From the UHGV virus genome UHGV-1753860: a stretch of 10,775 nt of DNA; one strand, written 5' to 3'. Position numbers and translations under genes: made by a program. Numbering within the stretch: position 1 is the first letter of the stretch; each line of letters starts with the position of its first letter. The stretch is from a virus. Below, one piece after another: positions 2,348-8,902 of this stretch. The notes under the pieces are model-generated. The model did not search any database. It saw only the letters and a list, made by a program, of their open reading frames with translations, and was not told the DNA's origin.

Positions 2348-2575
2348 ATGACCCTTTATGAAATATTAAAAATTCAATTTAAAACCAATGCCGCTATTGG
2401 TCGCAGGTTCCCAAAGAAAGGAAGGCCTCGTGGCAGTCAAGGTGTTGGAAAGTGGAAAACGCGAGGTGTTCCGGAGGATGTTGCCATTCTTTGTCATCTG
2501 GATCCGAGCATTCCATATACACACCCAAGTCTAGCGAATACAGAAGATGACAAGCCCACAGGAGACCAACAATGA
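2348..2575 (+). CDS. Small basic hypothetical protein (75 aa) in the position where cro is expected; coding status uncertain
   Basis: ORF in supplied track begins 18 nt after the last operator site and its stop overlaps the next start (ATGA at 2572-2575), but the Shine-Dalgarno is weak and I see no recognisable Cro-type HTH. Confidence 0.25.
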   Translation: MTLYEILKIQFKTNAAIGRRFPKKGRPRGSQGVGKWKTRGVPEDVAILCHLDPSIPYTHPSLANTEDDKPTGDQQ

Positions 2576-3279
2576 ACACCGCAATTTTTAACGGCAAAGC
2601 ATCCATGACCAGCGTTGAGATCGCAGAGCTGGTGGGAAGCCGACCAGATAGTGTTAAGAGAACTATTGAAACACTGGCTAAAAAGGGAATCATCCAATTT
2701 CCACAGACTGTGGAAATTGAGAATAAACAATCACTTGGGCCTCGCCGATTTTCTAGCGCGTATGTATTCGAAGGTGAACGAGGTAAGCGCGACAGCATCA
2801 TTGTCGTCGCACAGCTCTGTCCTGAATTCACAGCTCGCCTGGTAGATCGCTGGCGCGAACTGGAAGAACAGATCCGTAAGCCAATGAGCGAAATCGAAAT
2901 GGTTGCCGCGATGGCTCTTGAAGCCGTTCGCCAACAGAAACGGATCACTCAGGTGGAAGAAAAAGTCAGCCACGTTGCTGAAACAGTCGAGCAAATTAAA
3001 AAGGGCACTATTCGTGAGGGCTATGCCGGATATCGCCAACTGAAAGCAAAAACCGGTTTGTCAGATGATAAATGCCGCAATCTGGTGAACGCCTATCAAA
3101 TTCCTACAGACACACATGAGTTCATGACGCCGGACGGATTGTTGTCACGTCGCGCAATTGTTGCTGTGGAACCGTTTATGGCTGCTTTTTATCGGGTTAT
3201 GGAGGAAGCAGAACCGCGAGGGACTCGCTGGTATCACCCGAAAATGGGGTTATTTCAGGTTATTGGTTGGCAGCGGTGA
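2572..3279 (+). CDS. Rha-family (KilA-N clan) phage regulatory / antirepressor-like protein, 235 aa
   Basis: N-terminus NGKASMTSVEIAELVGSRPDSVKRTIETL and downstream RLVDRWRELEEQI fit the Rha-domain pattern as recalled (S.EIAEL.G.RHDNV.R.I, DRW.ELE). Strong AGGAGA Shine-Dalgarno 6 nt before ATG 2572. Confidence 0.75.
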   Translation: MNTAIFNGKASMTSVEIAELVGSRPDSVKRTIETLAKKGIIQFPQTVEIENKQSLGPRRFSSAYVFEGERGKRDSIIVVAQLCPEFTARLVDRWRELEEQIRKPMSEIEMVAAMALEAVRQQKRITQVEEKVSHVAETVEQIKKGTIREGYAGYRQLKAKTGLSDDKCRNLVNAYQIPTDTHEFMTPDGLLSRRAIVAVEPFMAAFYRVMEEAEPRGTRWYHPKMGLFQVIGWQR

Positions 3280-3302
3280 AAAAAAGCCGGGAGTAACCCG
3301 GC
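3279..3302 (-). terminator. Intrinsic (rho-independent) terminator for leftward transcription
   Basis: Plus strand reads A7 (3279-3285), GCCGGG (3286-3291), loop AGTAA, CCCGGC (3297-3302). On the minus strand this is a 6-bp GC stem followed by U7. No U-tract follows on the plus strand, so it is oriented for leftward transcripts and abuts the stop codon of the 2572-3279 gene. Confidence 0.6.
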
Positions 3303-3365
3303 TCACTCAACATCAATAACGGGGAGCTGTTTCGCATAAAACGGCTCCGAAACATCCAAGAACAG
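3279..3365 (-). ncRNA. Candidate leftward small RNA (OOP-like position), about 85 nt, ending at the 3279-3302 terminator
   Basis: Minus-strand promoter-like hexamers TTGAAA (complement of 3395-3400), 18-nt spacer, TATCTT (complement of 3371-3376) would start transcription near 3364; the transcript would contain the 3323-3348 hairpin and end at the U7 terminator. No protein-coding capacity. Hypothetical. Confidence 0.25.
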
Positions 3366-3409
3366 TTCTAAAGATATCAGCAGCTATATGATCATTTCAA
3401 GACCAAATA

Positions 3410-3438
3410 TTGATTCTGCAATTTCGGGACGTTAAACT
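3410..3438 (+). promoter_or_regulatory. Candidate sigma70 promoter of small-RNA module 1
   Basis: TTGATT (3410-3415), 17-nt spacer, TAAACT (3433-3438). The same arrangement recurs at 4066-4094 inside a 62-nt block that is 60/62 identical by hand alignment. Confidence 0.5.
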
Positions 3439-3444
3439 GTCTCT

Positions 3445-3521
3445 GCACCTTATAAAGCGGGTGCCGGGGGTCGCAGCCCGGAATTGTCAACGGCGATATA
3501 TGACGCGCCAGCGTCTTTTTT
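3445..3521 (+). ncRNA. Candidate small RNA 1 (about 77 nt): conserved 5' block, hairpin, single-stranded seed GUCAACGG, intrinsic terminator
   Basis: Predicted start G3445; hairpin CCGGG/CCCGG (3464-3481); seed GTCAACGG (3486-3493); terminator GACGC-GCCA-GCGTC followed by T6 (3502-3521). Seed is perfectly complementary to CCGTTGAC at 3590-3597 and identical to GTCAACGG at 3669-3676, which overlaps the GGAGG ribosome-binding site of the Rha gene at 3688. Confidence 0.5.
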
Positions 3522-3687
3522 ATCGTCCGCGCTCACGCACGCCAGAATTATGGTGGGCTGGGCAGGGGAGCCGAAAGGCTCGCCGGTCTCCGTTGACGCC
3601 GGTACTGCGAACCCTGTTCAGTCTGCCACCAGTGAGTTTCGCAGCTCCGGTGGTGGAAGTTTTTCACTGTCAACGGAGGCTGCCATC

Positions 3688-4050
3688 ATGGCTACTGTCC
3701 TAACTTCCCCATTCCTAAAAATCGAAGTCGTCAACGGCAAGGCCGTTATTTTCTCCCTGCATGTTGCCTGCCATTTCAAGCGCATGCACCAGAACATCGT
3801 TGACAAAATCGAGTATCTGAACTGCTCACGCGAGTTTTTTACCCGCAATTTCATACCGGGTACTTATCACATCTACGGTGACTCCCTGCGTGGTTATTAC
3901 ATCACCCTTGATGGTCTGATGATGCTTCAGCTTGGGTTAAGTCTGCGCACAATGCGGTACTACGAGAGCTGTATTGAAGCATTCCATGAGGCTGAAACCG
4001 TCCAGGGTCACTCCGCGTTCCGTCGTAATCAACGGGAGGTGCACCTATGA
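3688..4050 (+). CDS. Rha-family phage regulatory protein (short, about 120 aa, Rha domain only)
   Basis: MATVLTSPFLKIEVVNGKAVIFSLHVACHFKRMHQNIVDKIEYL fits the Rha N-terminal pattern. ATG 3688 has GGAGG 9 nt upstream. The supplied track extends the frame to a TTG at 3484, but that start has no ribosome-binding site. Confidence 0.75.
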   Translation: MATVLTSPFLKIEVVNGKAVIFSLHVACHFKRMHQNIVDKIEYLNCSREFFTRNFIPGTYHIYGDSLRGYYITLDGLMMLQLGLSLRTMRYYESCIEAFHEAETVQGHSAFRRNQREVHL

Positions 4051-4898
4051 TCCGCCACCAGCATATTGATTCTGCAATTTCGGGACGTTACACTGTCTCC
4101 GCACCTTATAAAGCGGGTGCCGGGCGTGGAAACCCGAAATTCAATATAGAGCACAACCGCGCTCATGCGGTTTTTTCGTGTCATGAGCATCGTTACGCCC
4201 AAATTATGGTGGGACGTGCAGGGCCAACTTCGGTTGGGCCGGGTTCTATGTTGACCGGTATTTCCACCCCTGTACGTCTCACCACCTATATGGTCGTGGA
4301 AAGCCTTGGTGGTGAGTTCATTGAATTCAACATAGGGGCTGTCACCATGACTACTCTCCCAGCCCAATCTCACCCTGAAATCACGATTATCAATGGTCGC
4401 GTTGTCACCACATCTCTTGCAGTAGCTAATTACTTTACTAAACGGCATGAGCGGGTTTTAGATAGAATTAGAAACCTCGAATGTTCCGCTGAATTTACTG
4501 AACACAATTTTGTGTTAAGTGAATACACCGACGCATCAGGCCGCAAACTCCCTTGTTACCAAATCACCCGCGACGGTTTTGCGTTTCTTGCCATGGGCTT
4601 CACTGGTAAACGTGCTGCCCAGTTCAAAGAGGCATACATCAACGCCTTTAACCAGATGGAGAAGAATTTATCTGGTGCTGACGCGGTTGATATGTCAGCT
4701 GTCGCACGAAACGCCAGAGGCGTATACCTGCATTTGCGTGAAATCCATCAAATCTGGACAAGCCAGCTTTATCCAATGCTTAAGGCCGTTGAATCTCCGC
4801 TGGCTAGCAAACTGTACGACCGTGTTGGTGATGCTGTTTTTGGCGCTGCACTTGTTGATTCCAGGCTGAATGGTTCTGACAAGGAGGTTCGCCCATGA
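4047..4898 (+). CDS. Rha-family phage regulatory protein; start ambiguous between ATG 4047 (long, 283 aa) and ATG 4347 (Rha domain at the N-terminus, 183 aa)
   Basis: Rha motif VVTTSLAVANYFTKRHERVLDRIRNLE begins about 10 residues after M4347, which fits the family architecture. ATG 4047 has a strong GGAGG 7 nt upstream and overlaps the previous stop (ATGA), and the frame is open throughout, so a long isoform or coupled leader translation cannot be excluded. The 4047-4346 stretch also holds the small-RNA module 2 signals. Confidence 0.7.
   Translation: MIRHQHIDSAISGRYTVSAPYKAGAGRGNPKFNIEHNRAHAVFSCHEHRYAQIMVGRAGPTSVGPGSMLTGISTPVRLTTYMVVESLGGEFIEFNIGAVTMTTLPAQSHPEITIINGRVVTTSLAVANYFTKRHERVLDRIRNLECSAEFTEHNFVLSEYTDASGRKLPCYQITRDGFAFLAMGFTGKRAAQFKEAYINAFNQMEKNLSGADAVDMSAVARNARGVYLHLREIHQIWTSQLYPMLKAVESPLASKLYDRVGDAVFGAALVDSRLNGSDKEVRP
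4066..4094 (+). promoter_or_regulatory. Candidate sigma70 promoter of small-RNA module 2
   Basis: TTGATT (4066-4071), 17-nt spacer, TACACT (4089-4094); paralogous to 3410-3438. Confidence 0.45.
4101..4176 (+). ncRNA. Candidate small RNA 2 (about 76 nt): same architecture as small RNA 1 but with seed UCAAUAUAG
   Basis: Predicted start G4101; hairpin CGGG/CCCG (4121-4136); seed TCAATATAG (4141-4149); terminator ACCGC-GCTCAT-GCGGT followed by T6 (4156-4176). Seed pairs with CTATGTTGA at 4246-4254 (8 Watson-Crick pairs plus one G-U) and matches TCAACATAG at 4327-4335 next to the ribosome-binding site of the Rha start at 4347. Confidence 0.45.
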
Positions 4899-5089
4899 TT
4901 AGTTACGAAATCATCATCTCCACTACGGAATACAGAAACGATGTATCAGTTCGCACGGATGTATCTGTCTGGCACCGTCGCTATAAATCCAGAAAAACAG
5001 CGGAACTGAAAGCGGCAGAGATGTGTGAAACCATCTCAATGAAAGGTAGCCCGGTTAAATACGTAACTACGGCGGAGGTGCGTCCATGA
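4895..5089 (+). CDS. Hypothetical small protein (64 aa)
   Basis: ATG 4895 overlaps the previous stop (ATGA); GGAGG 7 nt upstream; no recognisable motif. Confidence 0.5.
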   Translation: MISYEIIISTTEYRNDVSVRTDVSVWHRRYKSRKTAELKAAEMCETISMKGSPVKYVTTAEVRP

Positions 5090-5310
5090 TCCGCCACATC
5101 GTTAATTCCCTGTATCACCGATACAACCGTTGCCCCCGTGTGGGGCAGTGGTTCGCCACCAGCAACGGTCACGTTCTGCGGGTTTGCCTAGTCAACGCTG
5201 AAAGCCAGAAAGTCGTGTGCGAACTACAGGGGCGTAGCTACACCATCAGTTACCCTCTGGCGGTATTTCTGTCTGGAAAAATGTTTAAGCGTCTGGGAGG
5301 TGTGGCGTGA
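5086..5310 (+). CDS. Hypothetical small protein (74 aa)
   Basis: ATG 5086 overlaps the previous stop; GGAGG 7 nt upstream; begins MIRH, as does the 4047 ORF. Confidence 0.5.
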   Translation: MIRHIVNSLYHRYNRCPRVGQWFATSNGHVLRVCLVNAESQKVVCELQGRSYTISYPLAVFLSGKMFKRLGGVA

Positions 5311-5606
5311 ACTGTTTTCAGTTTGTGTGCGGATGTGCTTTCGATAACCCGATTCAGCGCCTGATTATGTTGCGTGTTTTGATGTCGGGTTCTTCAGACG
5401 GTGAAGGCGAGAGAGTTATTGATCATCAGGTGCTTGCTGATTTCTGCTGTTGTTCTAAGCAAGCGATATTCAGGGAAACCCTGGCACTGGAAAGAGCTGG
5501 TTATCTTCATATCCGAAAAATTGCAACGCTTACTATTGATGCAAAAGCCAGACTACAACCTGCGCGTGGCTACACAATTCTCATGCCGCGGAAGGAGGTT
5601 GTATGA
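5307..5606 (+). CDS. Hypothetical protein (99 aa), possibly a winged-helix DNA-binding protein
   Basis: GTG start overlapping the previous stop with GGAGG upstream; the segment VIDHQVLADFCCCSKQAIFRETLALERAGYLHIRK looks like an HTH or winged-helix recognition unit. Weak inference. Confidence 0.45.
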   Translation: MNCFQFVCGCAFDNPIQRLIMLRVLMSGSSDGEGERVIDHQVLADFCCCSKQAIFRETLALERAGYLHIRKIATLTIDAKARLQPARGYTILMPRKEVV

Positions 5607-6595
5607 GCCGTTACGCCCCCACACCGGAAGTTATGGCTATTGGTCAAATTAATATTTCCGGCAATGTTACACCTGCGAACTGGTGGAAATATATTCGACT
5701 ACCCAGTGGGCGTCCGGATGCGACGGCTATCGCTCTGCTTTCAGAGATCGTTTACTGGTACCGCCCGACAGAGGTCAGGGATGAGCACACCGGAGCGTTG
5801 CTGGGATATCGCAAGCGTTTTCAGGGCGACAAACTGCAAAGAAGCTACCAGGCGTTTGCTGAGCAGTTTGGTTTCGGGAAAAGGGAAACCGCAGATGCGC
5901 TGAAGCGTCTGCGCGATGCAGGGTTTATTACTCTGGATTTACGCACGGTGGAAATGCTCGATGGGGTGAAATGCAGCAATATTTTGTTTGTCGGGATCAA
6001 CCCACAGGCAATTGCGGCCATCACCACACCTTCTTCTGTTTCGCCAGAAAGTAACAGCAATAATGCAATCAGCGATACAGCTATTACGTTAAAACGGAAC
6101 ACCCCCCGACGTCATAACGGAACAGGGGATACGCCGAATGTTGATACAAATACAGAGATTACTACAGAGATTACAACGGAGACTAAAAACACTATTGATG
6201 CATCCGCTGACGCGTCTGCGCCAGCGCGTTCTGCCCGACAGGAATATTCACCGGAATTTGAACAGGCCTGGCAGGAATATCCCAAACGTGCTGGTGGCAA
6301 TTCCAAGTCAGCAGCCTTCAAAGCCTGGAAAGCCCGTATCAGGGAGGGAATAAAACCGGAGACCATGCTTGATGGCGTGAAGCGGTATGCCGCCTGGGTA
6401 CGTGCTACAGGAAATACCGGCACACAGTTCGTGAAGCAGGCTGCGACGTTCTTTGGACCCGATCGTCACTTCGAAGATTACTGGCAACAGCCAGCCGCTC
6501 ACGGAGGTGGGCGACAGCGACAGGTCGATGTCCTGGCTGGCCTGGGAGCCATGTCTGACAAATTCGGTAAATCCAGTAACAAATTGACATTCTGA
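5603..6595 (+). CDS. Phage replication initiation protein (O-like, partner of the DnaC-type loader); family assignment tentative
   Basis: 330-aa ORF with GGAGG ribosome-binding site, directly upstream of and translationally coupled to the DnaC-like and DnaB-like genes. Two-domain layout with a Thr/Ser/Asp-rich low-complexity linker whose DNA carries iteron-like repeats. Confidence 0.65.
   Translation: MSRYAPTPEVMAIGQINISGNVTPANWWKYIRLPSGRPDATAIALLSEIVYWYRPTEVRDEHTGALLGYRKRFQGDKLQRSYQAFAEQFGFGKRETADALKRLRDAGFITLDLRTVEMLDGVKCSNILFVGINPQAIAAITTPSSVSPESNSNNAISDTAITLKRNTPRRHNGTGDTPNVDTNTEITTEITTETKNTIDASADASAPARSARQEYSPEFEQAWQEYPKRAGGNSKSAAFKAWKARIREGIKPETMLDGVKRYAAWVRATGNTGTQFVKQAATFFGPDRHFEDYWQQPAAHGGGRQRQVDVLAGLGAMSDKFGKSSNKLTF
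6152..6185. repeat. Iteron-like direct repeats (2.5 copies of a 12-bp unit) inside the initiator gene; candidate origin element
   Basis: ACAGAGATTACT (6152-6163), ACAGAGATTACA (6164-6175), ACGGAGACTA (6176-6185), followed by a GC-rich near-palindrome around GACGCGTC. Lambdoid origins commonly sit inside the initiator gene. Confidence 0.35.
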
Positions 6596-6605
6596 GGTGA
6601 CAGCG

Positions 6606-7505
6606 ATGATGACGATTGACCAACGTGAGAAACAAACAAGACTACAGGCGCGAATGGATGAGTTACGGGCAGAAATGGATGAGTTACGGGCAGAGATTGC
6701 ATTTGCTCAGAAGGGCGAAAAGCCATGGCCTTATCGTTCCTGCCTGATGCGTGAAGGTCACGGATATTGCGAAAAACACGGTAAATATCGTACGCATATA
6801 CTGGTGTGGATCGATCGTAATGGCGAGGACAGAGAAAAAATTTCATGCTGCCCTGACTGCTTGATCGCTGAGGCCAGTGATTTGACCATGGAACTGTCGT
6901 CCCTCAAGGCGGAAGAACTGACTGATAACGCCGGAATTGCTCTGCGTTTTCGGGACTGCGAGTTTGATAATTATCTGGAGGTTAATCCTGACGCAGCCAG
7001 AAATCTTGCGGCCTGTCGCCGCTATGCGGAGAACTGGCCAGATATGCTGGAGAACGGTACCAGTCTTGTTATGACCGGCAGTTGCGGTACCGGGAAAAAT
7101 CATCTGGCGGTATCAATGGCAAAACACATCATCCGTAACTATCTGGCCAGTGTGGAGATCACCGACGTGATGCGCCTTACCCGGGCTGTGAAAAACTGCT
7201 GGCGGAATGACAGTGAAAAAACAGCGGATGACGTCATTGAGCATTATGCGTCACTGGATTTGCTGATTGTCGACGAAGTCGGCGTTCAGTTTGGCAGTGC
7301 GGCTGAAATGGCCATTTTGCAGGAAATTATCAATGCCCGGTATGAGGGTATTTTGCCAACTATCCTGATCAGCAACCTTTCACCGGAAGAATTGTGGGCG
7401 TTCATCAGTCCCCGGATTGCCGACAGGATCACCGATGGCGGGCGCAACTGGTTGTCGTTTAACTGGCCCAGCTACCGTTCTCGTATCGGAGGTGTTGCCG
7501 CATGA
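6606..7505 (+). CDS. DnaC-type (IstB-like AAA+) replicative helicase loader
   Basis: Walker A LVMTGSCGTGKNHLAVSMA resembles E. coli DnaC GKPGTGKNHLAAAI as recalled; Walker B LLIVDEVG; Cys/His cluster near the N-terminus. Start set at ATG 6606 (GAGGTG upstream) rather than the GTG at 6597 in the track. Confidence 0.88.
   Translation: MMTIDQREKQTRLQARMDELRAEMDELRAEIAFAQKGEKPWPYRSCLMREGHGYCEKHGKYRTHILVWIDRNGEDREKISCCPDCLIAEASDLTMELSSLKAEELTDNAGIALRFRDCEFDNYLEVNPDAARNLAACRRYAENWPDMLENGTSLVMTGSCGTGKNHLAVSMAKHIIRNYLASVEITDVMRLTRAVKNCWRNDSEKTADDVIEHYASLDLLIVDEVGVQFGSAAEMAILQEIINARYEGILPTILISNLSPEELWAFISPRIADRITDGGRNWLSFNWPSYRSRIGGVAA
6654..6695 (+). repeat. Perfect-to-near-perfect 21-bp tandem duplication inside the helicase-loader coding sequence
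   Basis: ATGGATGAGTTACGGGCAGAA (6654-6674) is followed by ATGGATGAGTTACGGGCAGAG (6675-6695); in frame, it encodes MDELRAE twice. Confidence 0.9.
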
Positions 7506-8902
7506 CCAGCCAGAACACCCCGGCATGGCGTAACGATGACCTGGAAGGCGCTGTCATCGGTGCGTTTTTTCTGCGTGGGGCCGATCCGGAAGTGATGGAT
7601 ATTCTGGCCACACTTCCGGCGGATGTATTTTTTGTGCGTCAGTACCGGGATATTTACGCGGGGATTTGCAGACAGGCTCGCATATCCGGCGTCATTGACC
7701 CCGTACTGCTGTGCAATGAGATGCCGGAACTTGCCCCGGTGATTACCGACACCGGACGCAAAACCTGGGTGAAGTCTTCACTGGAGCACTATGTCGCAGC
7801 GTTGCGGCGCAATGCCGCACTGCGCGATGCAGAAAAAACACTGACTGAAGCATTACAGAATTTACGTGATGCGTATACCTGTGAAGCAGCCGAGGATGCC
7901 CTGAAGGATGTGCAGAACATGATGGCCTCACTGTCGACCGGAAAGGGCGTCATTCAGCCGGTTCACATTGATGATGTCCTTCCGGAAGTGGTCGACCGTG
8001 TTGAATGCCGCAATCAGGGACTGGAGAAATCCAGGGCACTGATGACCGGTATTGATGAACTGGACGCAAAAACGGGCGGTATGGAGCCCGGAGACCTGGT
8101 ATTCATTGCCGCCCGTCCTTCGATGGGGAAAACCGAACTTGCGCTGGACATCATCGACAAGGTGACTGAGCAGGGGCATGGCGTGCTTCTGTTCACCATG
8201 GAGATGGCGAACATCCAGATTGGTGAACGTATGGTGTCTGCTGCCGGTGGAATGCCGGTATCCCGTCTTAAGTCTGTTGCCAGTTTTGAAGATGAAGACT
8301 GGGCGCGTTTCTCGCAGGGCGTGGGACGAATGACGGGGCGTAATATCTGGATGGTGGATCAGGCAAACCTGACCATTGATGAGATATGTGCAACCACGAA
8401 GCACCACCGGATGAAACACCCGGAAACGGCGCTGGTGGTGGTCGATTACCTCGGTCTGATTAAAACCCGCAGCACGGGGCGTCACGACCTTGCTGTGGGG
8501 GAAATCTCAAAGGGACTTAAAAGCCTGGCAAAATCCGGCGGTTTCCCGCTGATTGCTCTGAGCCAGCTCTCCCGAGGCGTGGAATCCAGACCCAATAAAC
8601 GTCCCATGAACTCAGACCTGAAAAACTCCGGGGAAATAGAGGCTGATGCCGACATCATTCTGATGCTTTACAGGGATGAGGTGTATAACCCGGATACACA
8701 GGCCAGAGGCATAGCAGAAATCAACATCACGAAACAGCGTAATGGCACACTCGGGACCATTTACCGGCGTTTTCATAACGGACATTTTCTGCCTGTGGAC
8801 CAGGAGAGTGCCCGGGTTCTTTCCACACCCATGACGCCGGGCAATCCGCGCAGATACAGCAATTACCGCATGTCGGGCAGTAAAACGGAGCGTTTATTTT
8901 GA
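7502..8902 (+). CDS. Replicative DNA helicase, DnaB family
   Basis: Walker A GDLVFIAARPSMGKTELAL; Walker B VVVDYLGLI; the hallmark stretch IALSQLSRGVESRPNKRPMNSDLKNSGEIEADADIILMLYRDEVYNP. ATG 7502 overlaps the upstream stop; GGAGG 9 nt upstream. Confidence 0.93.
   Translation: MTSQNTPAWRNDDLEGAVIGAFFLRGADPEVMDILATLPADVFFVRQYRDIYAGICRQARISGVIDPVLLCNEMPELAPVITDTGRKTWVKSSLEHYVAALRRNAALRDAEKTLTEALQNLRDAYTCEAAEDALKDVQNMMASLSTGKGVIQPVHIDDVLPEVVDRVECRNQGLEKSRALMTGIDELDAKTGGMEPGDLVFIAARPSMGKTELALDIIDKVTEQGHGVLLFTMEMANIQIGERMVSAAGGMPVSRLKSVASFEDEDWARFSQGVGRMTGRNIWMVDQANLTIDEICATTKHHRMKHPETALVVVDYLGLIKTRSTGRHDLAVGEISKGLKSLAKSGGFPLIALSQLSRGVESRPNKRPMNSDLKNSGEIEADADIILMLYRDEVYNPDTQARGIAEINITKQRNGTLGTIYRRFHNGHFLPVDQESARVLSTPMTPGNPRRYSNYRMSGSKTERLF

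Follow-up and report, generated by a model that had tools for sequence, protein, structure and literature searches.

A translational-coupling junction that probably doubles as a recombination joint around tandem antirepressor cassettes of a lambdoid prophage

Why should nearly the same short sequence stand at more than one gene boundary of a single prophage? In the virus genome UHGV-1753860, which was analyzed here over a stretch of 10,775 nucleotides (nt; the whole stretch is called the window below), one gene ends and the next begins within such a sequence at 4035-4058 (GGAGGTGCACCTATGATCCGCCAC) and again at 5074-5097 (GGAGGTGCGTCCATGATCCGCCAC). We refer to this junction sequence as J. A first-pass annotation of the window had regarded the two copies as a linker of the sort that mediates modular exchange in mosaic phage genomes. 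Between a roi-like gene and a small conserved gene, orf74, the window carries two tandem immI-like antirepressor cassettes, each consisting of a promoter, an isrK-like leader RNA, a C4 antisense RNA that lies within an orf45-like frame, and a gene of the Rha family (rha1 or rha2). An optional small gene, orf64, lies between rha2 and orf74 (Table 1). Our results suggest that J is probably a translational-coupling junction that doubles as a recurrent recombination joint, and that the copy at 4035-4058 is a stub left in front of the second cassette.

The two copies were identical at 21 of 24 positions, and no equivalent pair was found in 200 dinucleotide-preserving shuffles. The repetition at both module boundaries was thus confirmed, although the repeat is 24 nt long and not 27 nt as first described, because the flanking bases (4034/5073 and 4059/5098) differ. 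The contents ascribed to both copies were accurate: the end of the upstream gene with its TGA stop codon, a GGAGG Shine-Dalgarno sequence 7 nt before an ATG, and the codons for M-I-R-H. A weaker third copy, matching at 17 of 24 positions, was identified at the rha2/orf64 boundary (4883-4906). Three occurrences of the motif GGAGGTN6RTGA, and no more, were counted in the window, where 0.04 would be expected. The consensus of J can be written as GGAGGNNCGYCC-ATGAT, which comprises a Shine-Dalgarno sequence, a 7-nt spacer, and an ATGA overlap of stop and start codons. The layout of translational coupling (Shine-Dalgarno sequence 5-9 nt before the start, with ATGA overlap) was read at 4035-4050, 4883-4898, and 5074-5089. 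Additionally, the last four codons of the upstream gene (E-V-R/H-P/L-stop) come from J, with rha1 ending in ...REVHL-stop and orf64 in ...AEVRP-stop.

The surroundings of J were compared at 89 loci containing relatives of orf74. Four unrelated upstream genes adjoin orf74 through J at these loci, namely orf64 (...TTAEVRP-stop), rha1-type genes (...FRRNQWEVRP-stop), rha2-type genes (...GSDKEAHP-stop), and an open reading frame (ORF) of 77 amino acids (...MADVQEVRP-stop). The consensus sequences of these classes showed no relation as far as position -13, and conservation set in sharply at -12 (GGAGG T/C G C/T G/A C/T CC ATGAT...). Furthermore, an orf74 homologue with 55% amino-acid identity (L089, Stx2a_1447) retains GGGGGCGCAAATGATCCGG. 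Since unrelated upstream genes share J and a diverged orf74 keeps it, J serves the small downstream genes orf74 and orf64 as their translation-initiation region and is not a free linker.

An initiation region of this kind might look alike at several boundaries for reasons other than exchange. The similarity could be due to convergence or to common inheritance of a good initiation region, without any role of J in recombination, and illegitimate joints could merely have survived at gene boundaries, as in the Hendrix/Juhala model. We consider this explanation unlikely. Functional constraint acts on GGAGG at 7 nt and on ATGA, the perfect identity between the copies is short, and two further coupled junctions of the same operon have GGAGGT at different spacings (5296-5310, GGAGGTGTGGCGTGA; 5592-5606, GGAGGTTGTATGA), all of which would suit convergence. 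However, the 7-nt spacer and codons 2-4, which are unneeded for initiation, are conserved between the copies as well, and one and the same 12-nt leader is found ahead of the cassette stub and of three unrelated ORFs.

The arrangement of modules in relatives bears on the same question. We found the combinations rha1-J-orf74, rha1-J-orf64-J-orf74, rha2-J-orf74, and rha2-J-orf64-J-orf74, as well as tandem cassettes, and orf64 followed either rha1-type or rha2-type ends via J. The optional 77-amino-acid ORF (MCNNHYSD... or MRNNTRPD...; L075, L078, L080, and L056, at about 2271-2504) lies between a rha1-type gene and orf74 with J-like sequences on either side; the J upstream of this ORF is 1 nt shorter, and consequently rha1 ends a few codons later there. 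The first-pass annotation had reasoned that recombination between the two copies of J would remove the second Rha module together with the gene at 4895-5089, which is geometrically correct, and that relatives lacking 4047-5085 or carrying other cargo between the junctions might exist. Both kinds were identified. One relative (L092) lacks exactly window positions 4057-5073; it aligns to 2559-4056 (91.3%) and 5074-8880 (92.8%) with an overlap of 22 nt within J. These breakpoints inside J speak against convergence alone. In other relatives, the cargo between copies of J was orf64 alone, the different 77-amino-acid ORF, or a second cassette.

Exchange exactly at J was therefore present in related phages, and J has the properties of a linker, i.e., a conserved boundary sequence with unrelated sequence on one side in a subset of relatives, and alternative modules or an empty site between its copies. 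As a linker for modular exchange, J is borne out with respect to the exchange observed in relatives and to its resemblance to the known lambdoid kind; that J itself mediates the recombination, and in which order the events took place, we infer from the sequences. The spacer variants are informative in this regard. The variant GGAGGTTCGCCC goes with orf64 after either rha type, and GGAGGTACGCCC goes with rha1 before either orf64 or orf74, i.e., some spacer variants accompany the gene before J and others the gene after it. This segregation with either neighbour provides some evidence that crossovers may have occurred within J. Because J flanks every optional module (orf64, the 77-amino-acid ORF, and the second cassette), it probably acts as a recurrent recombination joint. 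The likeliest mechanism would be recombination over short or imperfect homology between co-resident lambdoid phages, which would be followed by selection for intact coupled genes.

Several points weigh against such a role. The copies at 4035-4058 and 5074-5097 share uninterrupted identity over 12 nt and 8 nt only, and the minimal efficient pairing length for RecA/RecBCD is roughly 23-27 base pairs (bp), so that efficient homologous exchange at J is not assured. When a synthetic product of J-J deletion was compared with 5,426 complete Escherichia coli genomes, the best contiguous match reached only 96.3%, and hence recent recombination between the two copies in the window received no support. 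A long direct repeat between the modules, which the first-pass annotation had missed (79 nt, 91% identity, 3407-3485 and 4063-4141), gave a different outcome in parallel, with contiguous matches to its recombination product at 99.5%. In line with this, the nearest relative (L091), with 99.6% identity to the window across about 7 kb on either side, differs from it via the 79-nt repeat and not via J. It is without 656 bp and has its breakpoints inside this repeat, and it therefore contains cassette 2 only, the first cassette having been lost. In addition, part of the similarity between the copies of J could be convergent or inherited, because a strong Shine-Dalgarno sequence and ATGA are under functional selection. 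The loci were gathered via orf74, which biases the census to orf74-containing contexts, and many of the genomes bearing tandem cassettes are clonal members of sequence type 131 (ST131), as judged by strain names. On the other side of the balance, phage recombinases tolerate short, diverged homology (PMC2327257).

The copy of J at 4035-4058 differs from the others in what follows it. A rha1-type end and J run directly into full-length orf74 in L001, L002 (phiP27), L006, and L092. At this place the window has just the first 12 nt of orf74 (ATGATCCGCCAC), after which come CAGCATA and the promoter of cassette 2, TTGATTCTGCAATTTCGGGACGTTACACT. Because relatives run the same rha1 end and J into a complete orf74, this copy is best read as a leftover start of orf74, a stub situated where the two tandem cassettes meet. 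Single-cassette phages (L005 and L006) have a B-type natural left flank, ...aagCGCCACCAGCATA-TTGATT, and the joint is thus readable as orf74 5' end, CGCCAC, and cassette left end. Accordingly worded as a sequence of events, 4035-4058 would be an old rha1-orf74 junction that kept J and the first 12 nt of orf74, and cassette 2, whose left end reads CCACCAGCATA before its TTGATT promoter, would have been attached to this stub through CGCCAC, a hexamer common to both sides.

This joint is not the only one of its kind. Three different tandem joints with differing breakpoints were identified, ATGATCCGCCACCAGCATA, ATGATTCGCCAACATA (L059), and ATGATCCGCTACCTGAATA (L070 and L078), and the left flank of many single cassettes begins with an orf74-like start, ATGATCCGCAACCAACATA. 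Taken together, the tandem joints and the orf74-like left flanks show the cassette recurring between J-plus-start sequences. Left flanks of types A, C, D, and E all open with ATGA(T/A), 19-22 nt before the promoter. The tandem arrangement is real; it was found in about 92 of the 5,426 E. coli genomes, and the tandem joint is stable enough to be common to lineages approximately 5% diverged (L007). With regard to convergence, the window-type joint is explicable by the 6-nt microhomology CGCCAC, but the three joints are independent, and all of them fall within the first four codons and in the same frame.

Table 1. Coordinates of the features discussed in the text (positions of the window).
Feature	Position	Strand	Description
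Cassette 1 left flank	3388..3406	+	ATGATCATTTCAAGACCAA; ATGATC-initiated left end, analogous to the stub at 4047
79-nt repeat, copy 1	3407..3485	+	Putative isrK promoter (TTGATT 3410-3415, 17-nt spacer, TAAACT 3433-3438); 5' half of isrK
isrK-like RNA 1	3445..3521	+	RF01394, 58.7 bits; intrinsic terminator 3502-3515, then T run
C4 antisense RNA 1	3546..3633	+	RF01695, 78.8 bits, full-length model match
rha1	3688..4050	+	120 amino acids, Rha family (antirepressor-like), cassette 1; PF09669, 30 bits; phrog_995, E=1.6e-55
J-1	4035..4058	+	Last four codons of rha1 and TGA, GGAGG, 7-nt spacer, ATGATCCGCCAC (first four codons of orf74)
79-nt repeat, copy 2	4063..4141	+	TTGATT 4066-4071, TACACT 4089-4094; breakpoints of the L091 indel within the repeat pair
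isrK-like RNA 2	4101..4177	+	RF01394, 61.6 bits; intrinsic terminator 4155-4172, then T run
C4 antisense RNA 2	4202..4289	+	RF01695, 83.0 bits, full-length model match
rha2	4347..4898	+	183 amino acids, Rha family, cassette 2; PF09669, 108.6 bits; TIGR02681, 102.6 bits
J-2	4883..4906	+	GGAGGTTCGCCCATGATTAGTTAC, between rha2 and orf64
orf64	4895..5089	+	phrog_7046, function unknown; optional small module with J on both sides
J-3	5074..5097	+	End of orf64, Shine-Dalgarno sequence, true start of orf74 (MIRH...)
orf74	5086..5310	+	phrog_1153, E=7.5e-42, function unknown; conserved small gene headed by J

If 4035-4058 ends in a stub, the ATG at 4047 should not be an ordinary gene start, as which the first-pass annotation had taken it. 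This assignment failed: after 12 orf74-like nt, the frame enters the promoter and the non-coding RNAs (isrK and C4) of cassette 2, for which reason ATG 4047 is not a normal start, and the frame has no codon periodicity. The frame opened at 4047 constitutes an ORF of 283 amino acids, of which residues 15-111 match PF10554 (Phage_ASH, E=5.7e-9). In the PGAP annotation, 4047-4898 is a single Rha-family protein, and the corresponding ORF of cassette 1 is an 'ash family protein'. At the DNA level, the Phage_ASH match corresponds to 4089-4379 and coincides with isrK and C4 (likewise 3430-3720 in cassette 1). Codon-position entropy over 47 unique cassettes was 0.51/0.54/0.51, compared with 0.11/0.13/0.41 for the orf74 control. 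We rejected 4047-4898 as a conventional protein of 283 amino acids because codon periodicity is absent; the stretch does not evolve in the way of a protein with a defined sequence.

A similar situation was observed in phage P4 (L093), in which an obsolete 'cI gene product' ORF matches Phage_ASH (8330-8521) where Rfam finds C4 (P4 CI RNA), with isrK just upstream of C4. Since the match overlies isrK and C4 and codon periodicity is absent, the Ash family (PF10554) appears to represent the translation of an RNA locus and not a domain of proteins, although a 2022 paper still treats Ash as a domain of unknown function (PMC8951638). For annotation, this means that a promoter and two non-coding RNAs underlie both what pipelines call an 'Ash domain' and the supposed 'gene start' at 4047.

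The frame itself is nonetheless kept open without amino-acid constraint. From the left flank to rha (window 3409-3690 and 4065-4349), it was open in 85 of 86 cassettes (L001-L092). Among unique sequences, 44 of 45 and 27 of 27 segments were free of stop codons, against 0.12 and 0.17 from shuffles, and segment lengths were 279, 282, or 285 nt, changing in multiples of 3. This suggests selection for translatability itself, reaching upstream of the published start of orf45. The open frame fits the published need for orf45 translation, and translation entering from upstream may matter too.

These features might be explained if ATG 4047 were a functional (re)initiation codon. Ribosomes ending rha1 at TGA would then restart and translate the 283-codon 'Ash-Rha' frame, Rha2 would be coupled to upstream expression with C4-2 bypassed, and J would be kept for that purpose. 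In addition to the conserved open frame and its lengths in multiples of 3, this explanation draws on left-flank ATG codons that often overlap or abut an upstream stop in unrelated contexts (phiP27 gctgcATGA, L089 cgcATGA), on the in-frame position of all three tandem joint types, on the annotation of the long ORF by PGAP, and on the coupling of orf45 translation to anrP shown in Gifsy-1 (PMC4825925). We nevertheless regard it as quite unlikely, given that codon periodicity is absent and that left-flank types F, G, and H are without ATG. Moreover, transcripts of the cassette itself would start downstream of 4047, judging from the 5' end of isrK, the isrK terminator would halt most read-through, and the frame of cassette 1 in the window has a stop codon at 3433-3435. 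An orf74 start stub remains our preferred reading of 4047-4058.

The promoters and RNAs of the two cassettes were also characterized. The isrK and C4 matches exceed the Rfam gathering scores of 50 bits (RF01394) and 45 bits (RF01695), respectively. In a sigma-70 consensus scan, the isrK promoters were not called, TTGATT-17-TACACT scoring 8/12 at a threshold of 9. Because of this score, the putative promoters were assigned by where the isrK 5' end lies and by their conservation in the 86 cassettes. A prophage of E. coli JKHS016 (L008) is 99.97% identical to the window and differs from it only at positions 3435 and 4362. Position 3435 is A in the window and C in all 85 other cassettes; this A turns the putative -10 hexamer (TACACT) of the first isrK promoter into TAAACT and also creates the sole stop codon seen in the 'Ash' frame.

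In cassette 1, loop a' of C4-1 (3588-3597) is complementary over 10 nt to a2 (3669-3678, GTCAACGGAG, over the Shine-Dalgarno sequence of rha1), and loop b' (3605-3611) over 7 nt to b2 (3638-3644). In cassette 2, loop a' of C4-2 (4246-4254) is complementary over 9 nt to a2 (4327-4335, TCAACATAG), and loop b' (4261-4267) over 7 nt to b2 (4296-4302). The a2/b2 targets were matched only by the C4 of their own cassette. C4-1 had no complementary run of at least 7 nt in cassette 2, and C4-2 had two unpaired 7-nt runs in the cassette-1 leader (3649-3655 and 3652-3658), which lie outside a2/b2 and do not involve the a' loop. The most probable start positions of the Rha genes are 3688 and 4347, because the C4 target sites lie just upstream of each. 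Since the C4 loops differ and each matches its own downstream a2/b2 only, this one prophage appears to carry two antirepressor genes under separate C4 antisense specificities.

Given these antisense RNAs, the copies of J might be C4 or IsrK targets that control the small genes, or the stub at 4047-4058 might be an upstream element of the second isrK promoter. The 5' end of IsrK (GCACCU) is complementary to AGGTGC within J over 6 nt only, TCAACGG at 4029-4035 matches the a' loop of C4-1 over 7 nt, and the stub would lie at about -54 to -43 from the putative isrK-2 start. Nevertheless, with matches of 6-7 nt, the paired a/b architecture is absent, the J positions involved vary from phage to phage (TGC, CGC, TAC, TTC, and GGC) while the IsrK 5' end is invariant, and other cassettes carry unrelated left flanks before the same promoter. 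We therefore consider this idea very improbable and, because the complementarity covers 6-7 nt at variable positions of J, the weakest of the alternatives. J as a C4 or IsrK target was rejected after a pairing search of both C4s and both isrKs against the three copies of J. Separately, the end of rha1 and the start of J at 4029-4039 (TCAACGGGAGG) resemble the a2 target of C4-1 (GTCAACGGAGG, 3669-3679); the match of TCAACGGGAGG to the C4-1 loop is exact over 7 nt, which could be due to chance or to C4-1 touching the junction too.

The window represents the early-right region of a lambdoid prophage, with genes for a LexA-like repressor, a cro-like gene, and the roi-like Rha/HTH (helix-turn-helix) gene, followed further along by O-like, DnaC-like, and DnaB-like replication genes. 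Judged by its codon-position entropy and the 55% identity of its L089 homologue, orf74 is a genuine coding gene. No match of orf74 or orf64 was found in Pfam, NCBIfam, or PDB sequences, and both belong to PHROG families of unknown function only. A contig scan for orf74 beyond E. coli phages yielded no confirmed relatives. A strong hairpin that resembles a terminator and has a T run was observed on the minus strand at 3284-3304, just after the roi-like gene, with no obvious minus-strand gene upstream of it.

The optional modules resemble morons, which Juhala and colleagues (in 2000) and Hendrix reportedly described as small extra genes inserted between conserved phage genes (cited in PMC2327257). 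Like morons, orf64, the 77-amino-acid ORF, and the extra cassette sit as optional insertions between neighbours that are conserved, and are variably present. Unlike morons, orf64 and the 77-amino-acid ORF have no promoter or terminator of their own and would be coupled through J, and direct repeats of J lie on either side of the insertions. Within the modular, mosaic view of lambdoid evolution, a role in module exchange has been proposed for short conserved sequences at module borders (PMC2327257, citing Clark et al. 2001 on HK620). J and these lambdoid linkers have in common a length of about 18-24 nt, a position at gene boundaries, presence in a subset of related phages, unrelated modules on either side, and the occurrence of every module combination among relatives. 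In contrast to those linkers, J coincides exactly with a coupling signal (Shine-Dalgarno sequence, ATGA, and first codons), donates the C-terminal four codons of the upstream gene, and brackets stackable antirepressor cassettes.

The cassettes themselves belong with isrK-orf45-anrP of Gifsy-1, immI of P1/P7 (c4-icd-ant), and the immunity region of P4 (seqA, CI RNA, and seqC). They share with these systems an isrK-like leader with its terminator and, as it appears from the sequences, a C4/CI-type antisense RNA in an orf45-like frame with predicted targets over the ribosome-binding region of a Rha/Ant-type antirepressor gene. P4 gave the same pair of Rfam matches (isrK and C4) as each cassette. 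In Gifsy-1, orf45 is translated and coupled to the antirepressor gene, the processed orf45 RNA, STnc1160, has been likened to P4 CI RNA, and IsrK has been likened to P4 seqA (PMC4825925). In the window, orf45 is fused in frame to rha, and the same fusion has been reported for S. dysenteriae (PMC4825925). Unlike Gifsy-1, P1, and P4, two tandem cassettes with different C4 loop/target pairs are present here.

A more far-reaching view would be that J together with the ATGAT(C/T)CGC start is a dedicated short-homology site for stacking and swapping antirepressor cassettes, and that the retained stub is functional, serving reinitiation into the next Rha gene. We hold this to be quite unlikely. If true, ribosomes would read via the isrK terminator and C4 into Rha, in a frame that selection keeps open without constraining the peptide, which would constitute a C4-independent antirepressor route, and prophages could stack or swap cassettes with distinct antisense-RNA specificities. 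The preferred reading, a coupling junction that doubles as a recurrent joint, involves no new mechanism, as both the linker concept and the isrK/C4/antirepressor module have already been described. It does provide a clean and well-populated natural case of lambdoid module shuffling at a short shared boundary, covering Shiga toxin (Stx) phages and an ST131-associated prophage; what is shuffled here are antirepressor cassettes, which have an influence on the induction of prophages and on their cross-talk.

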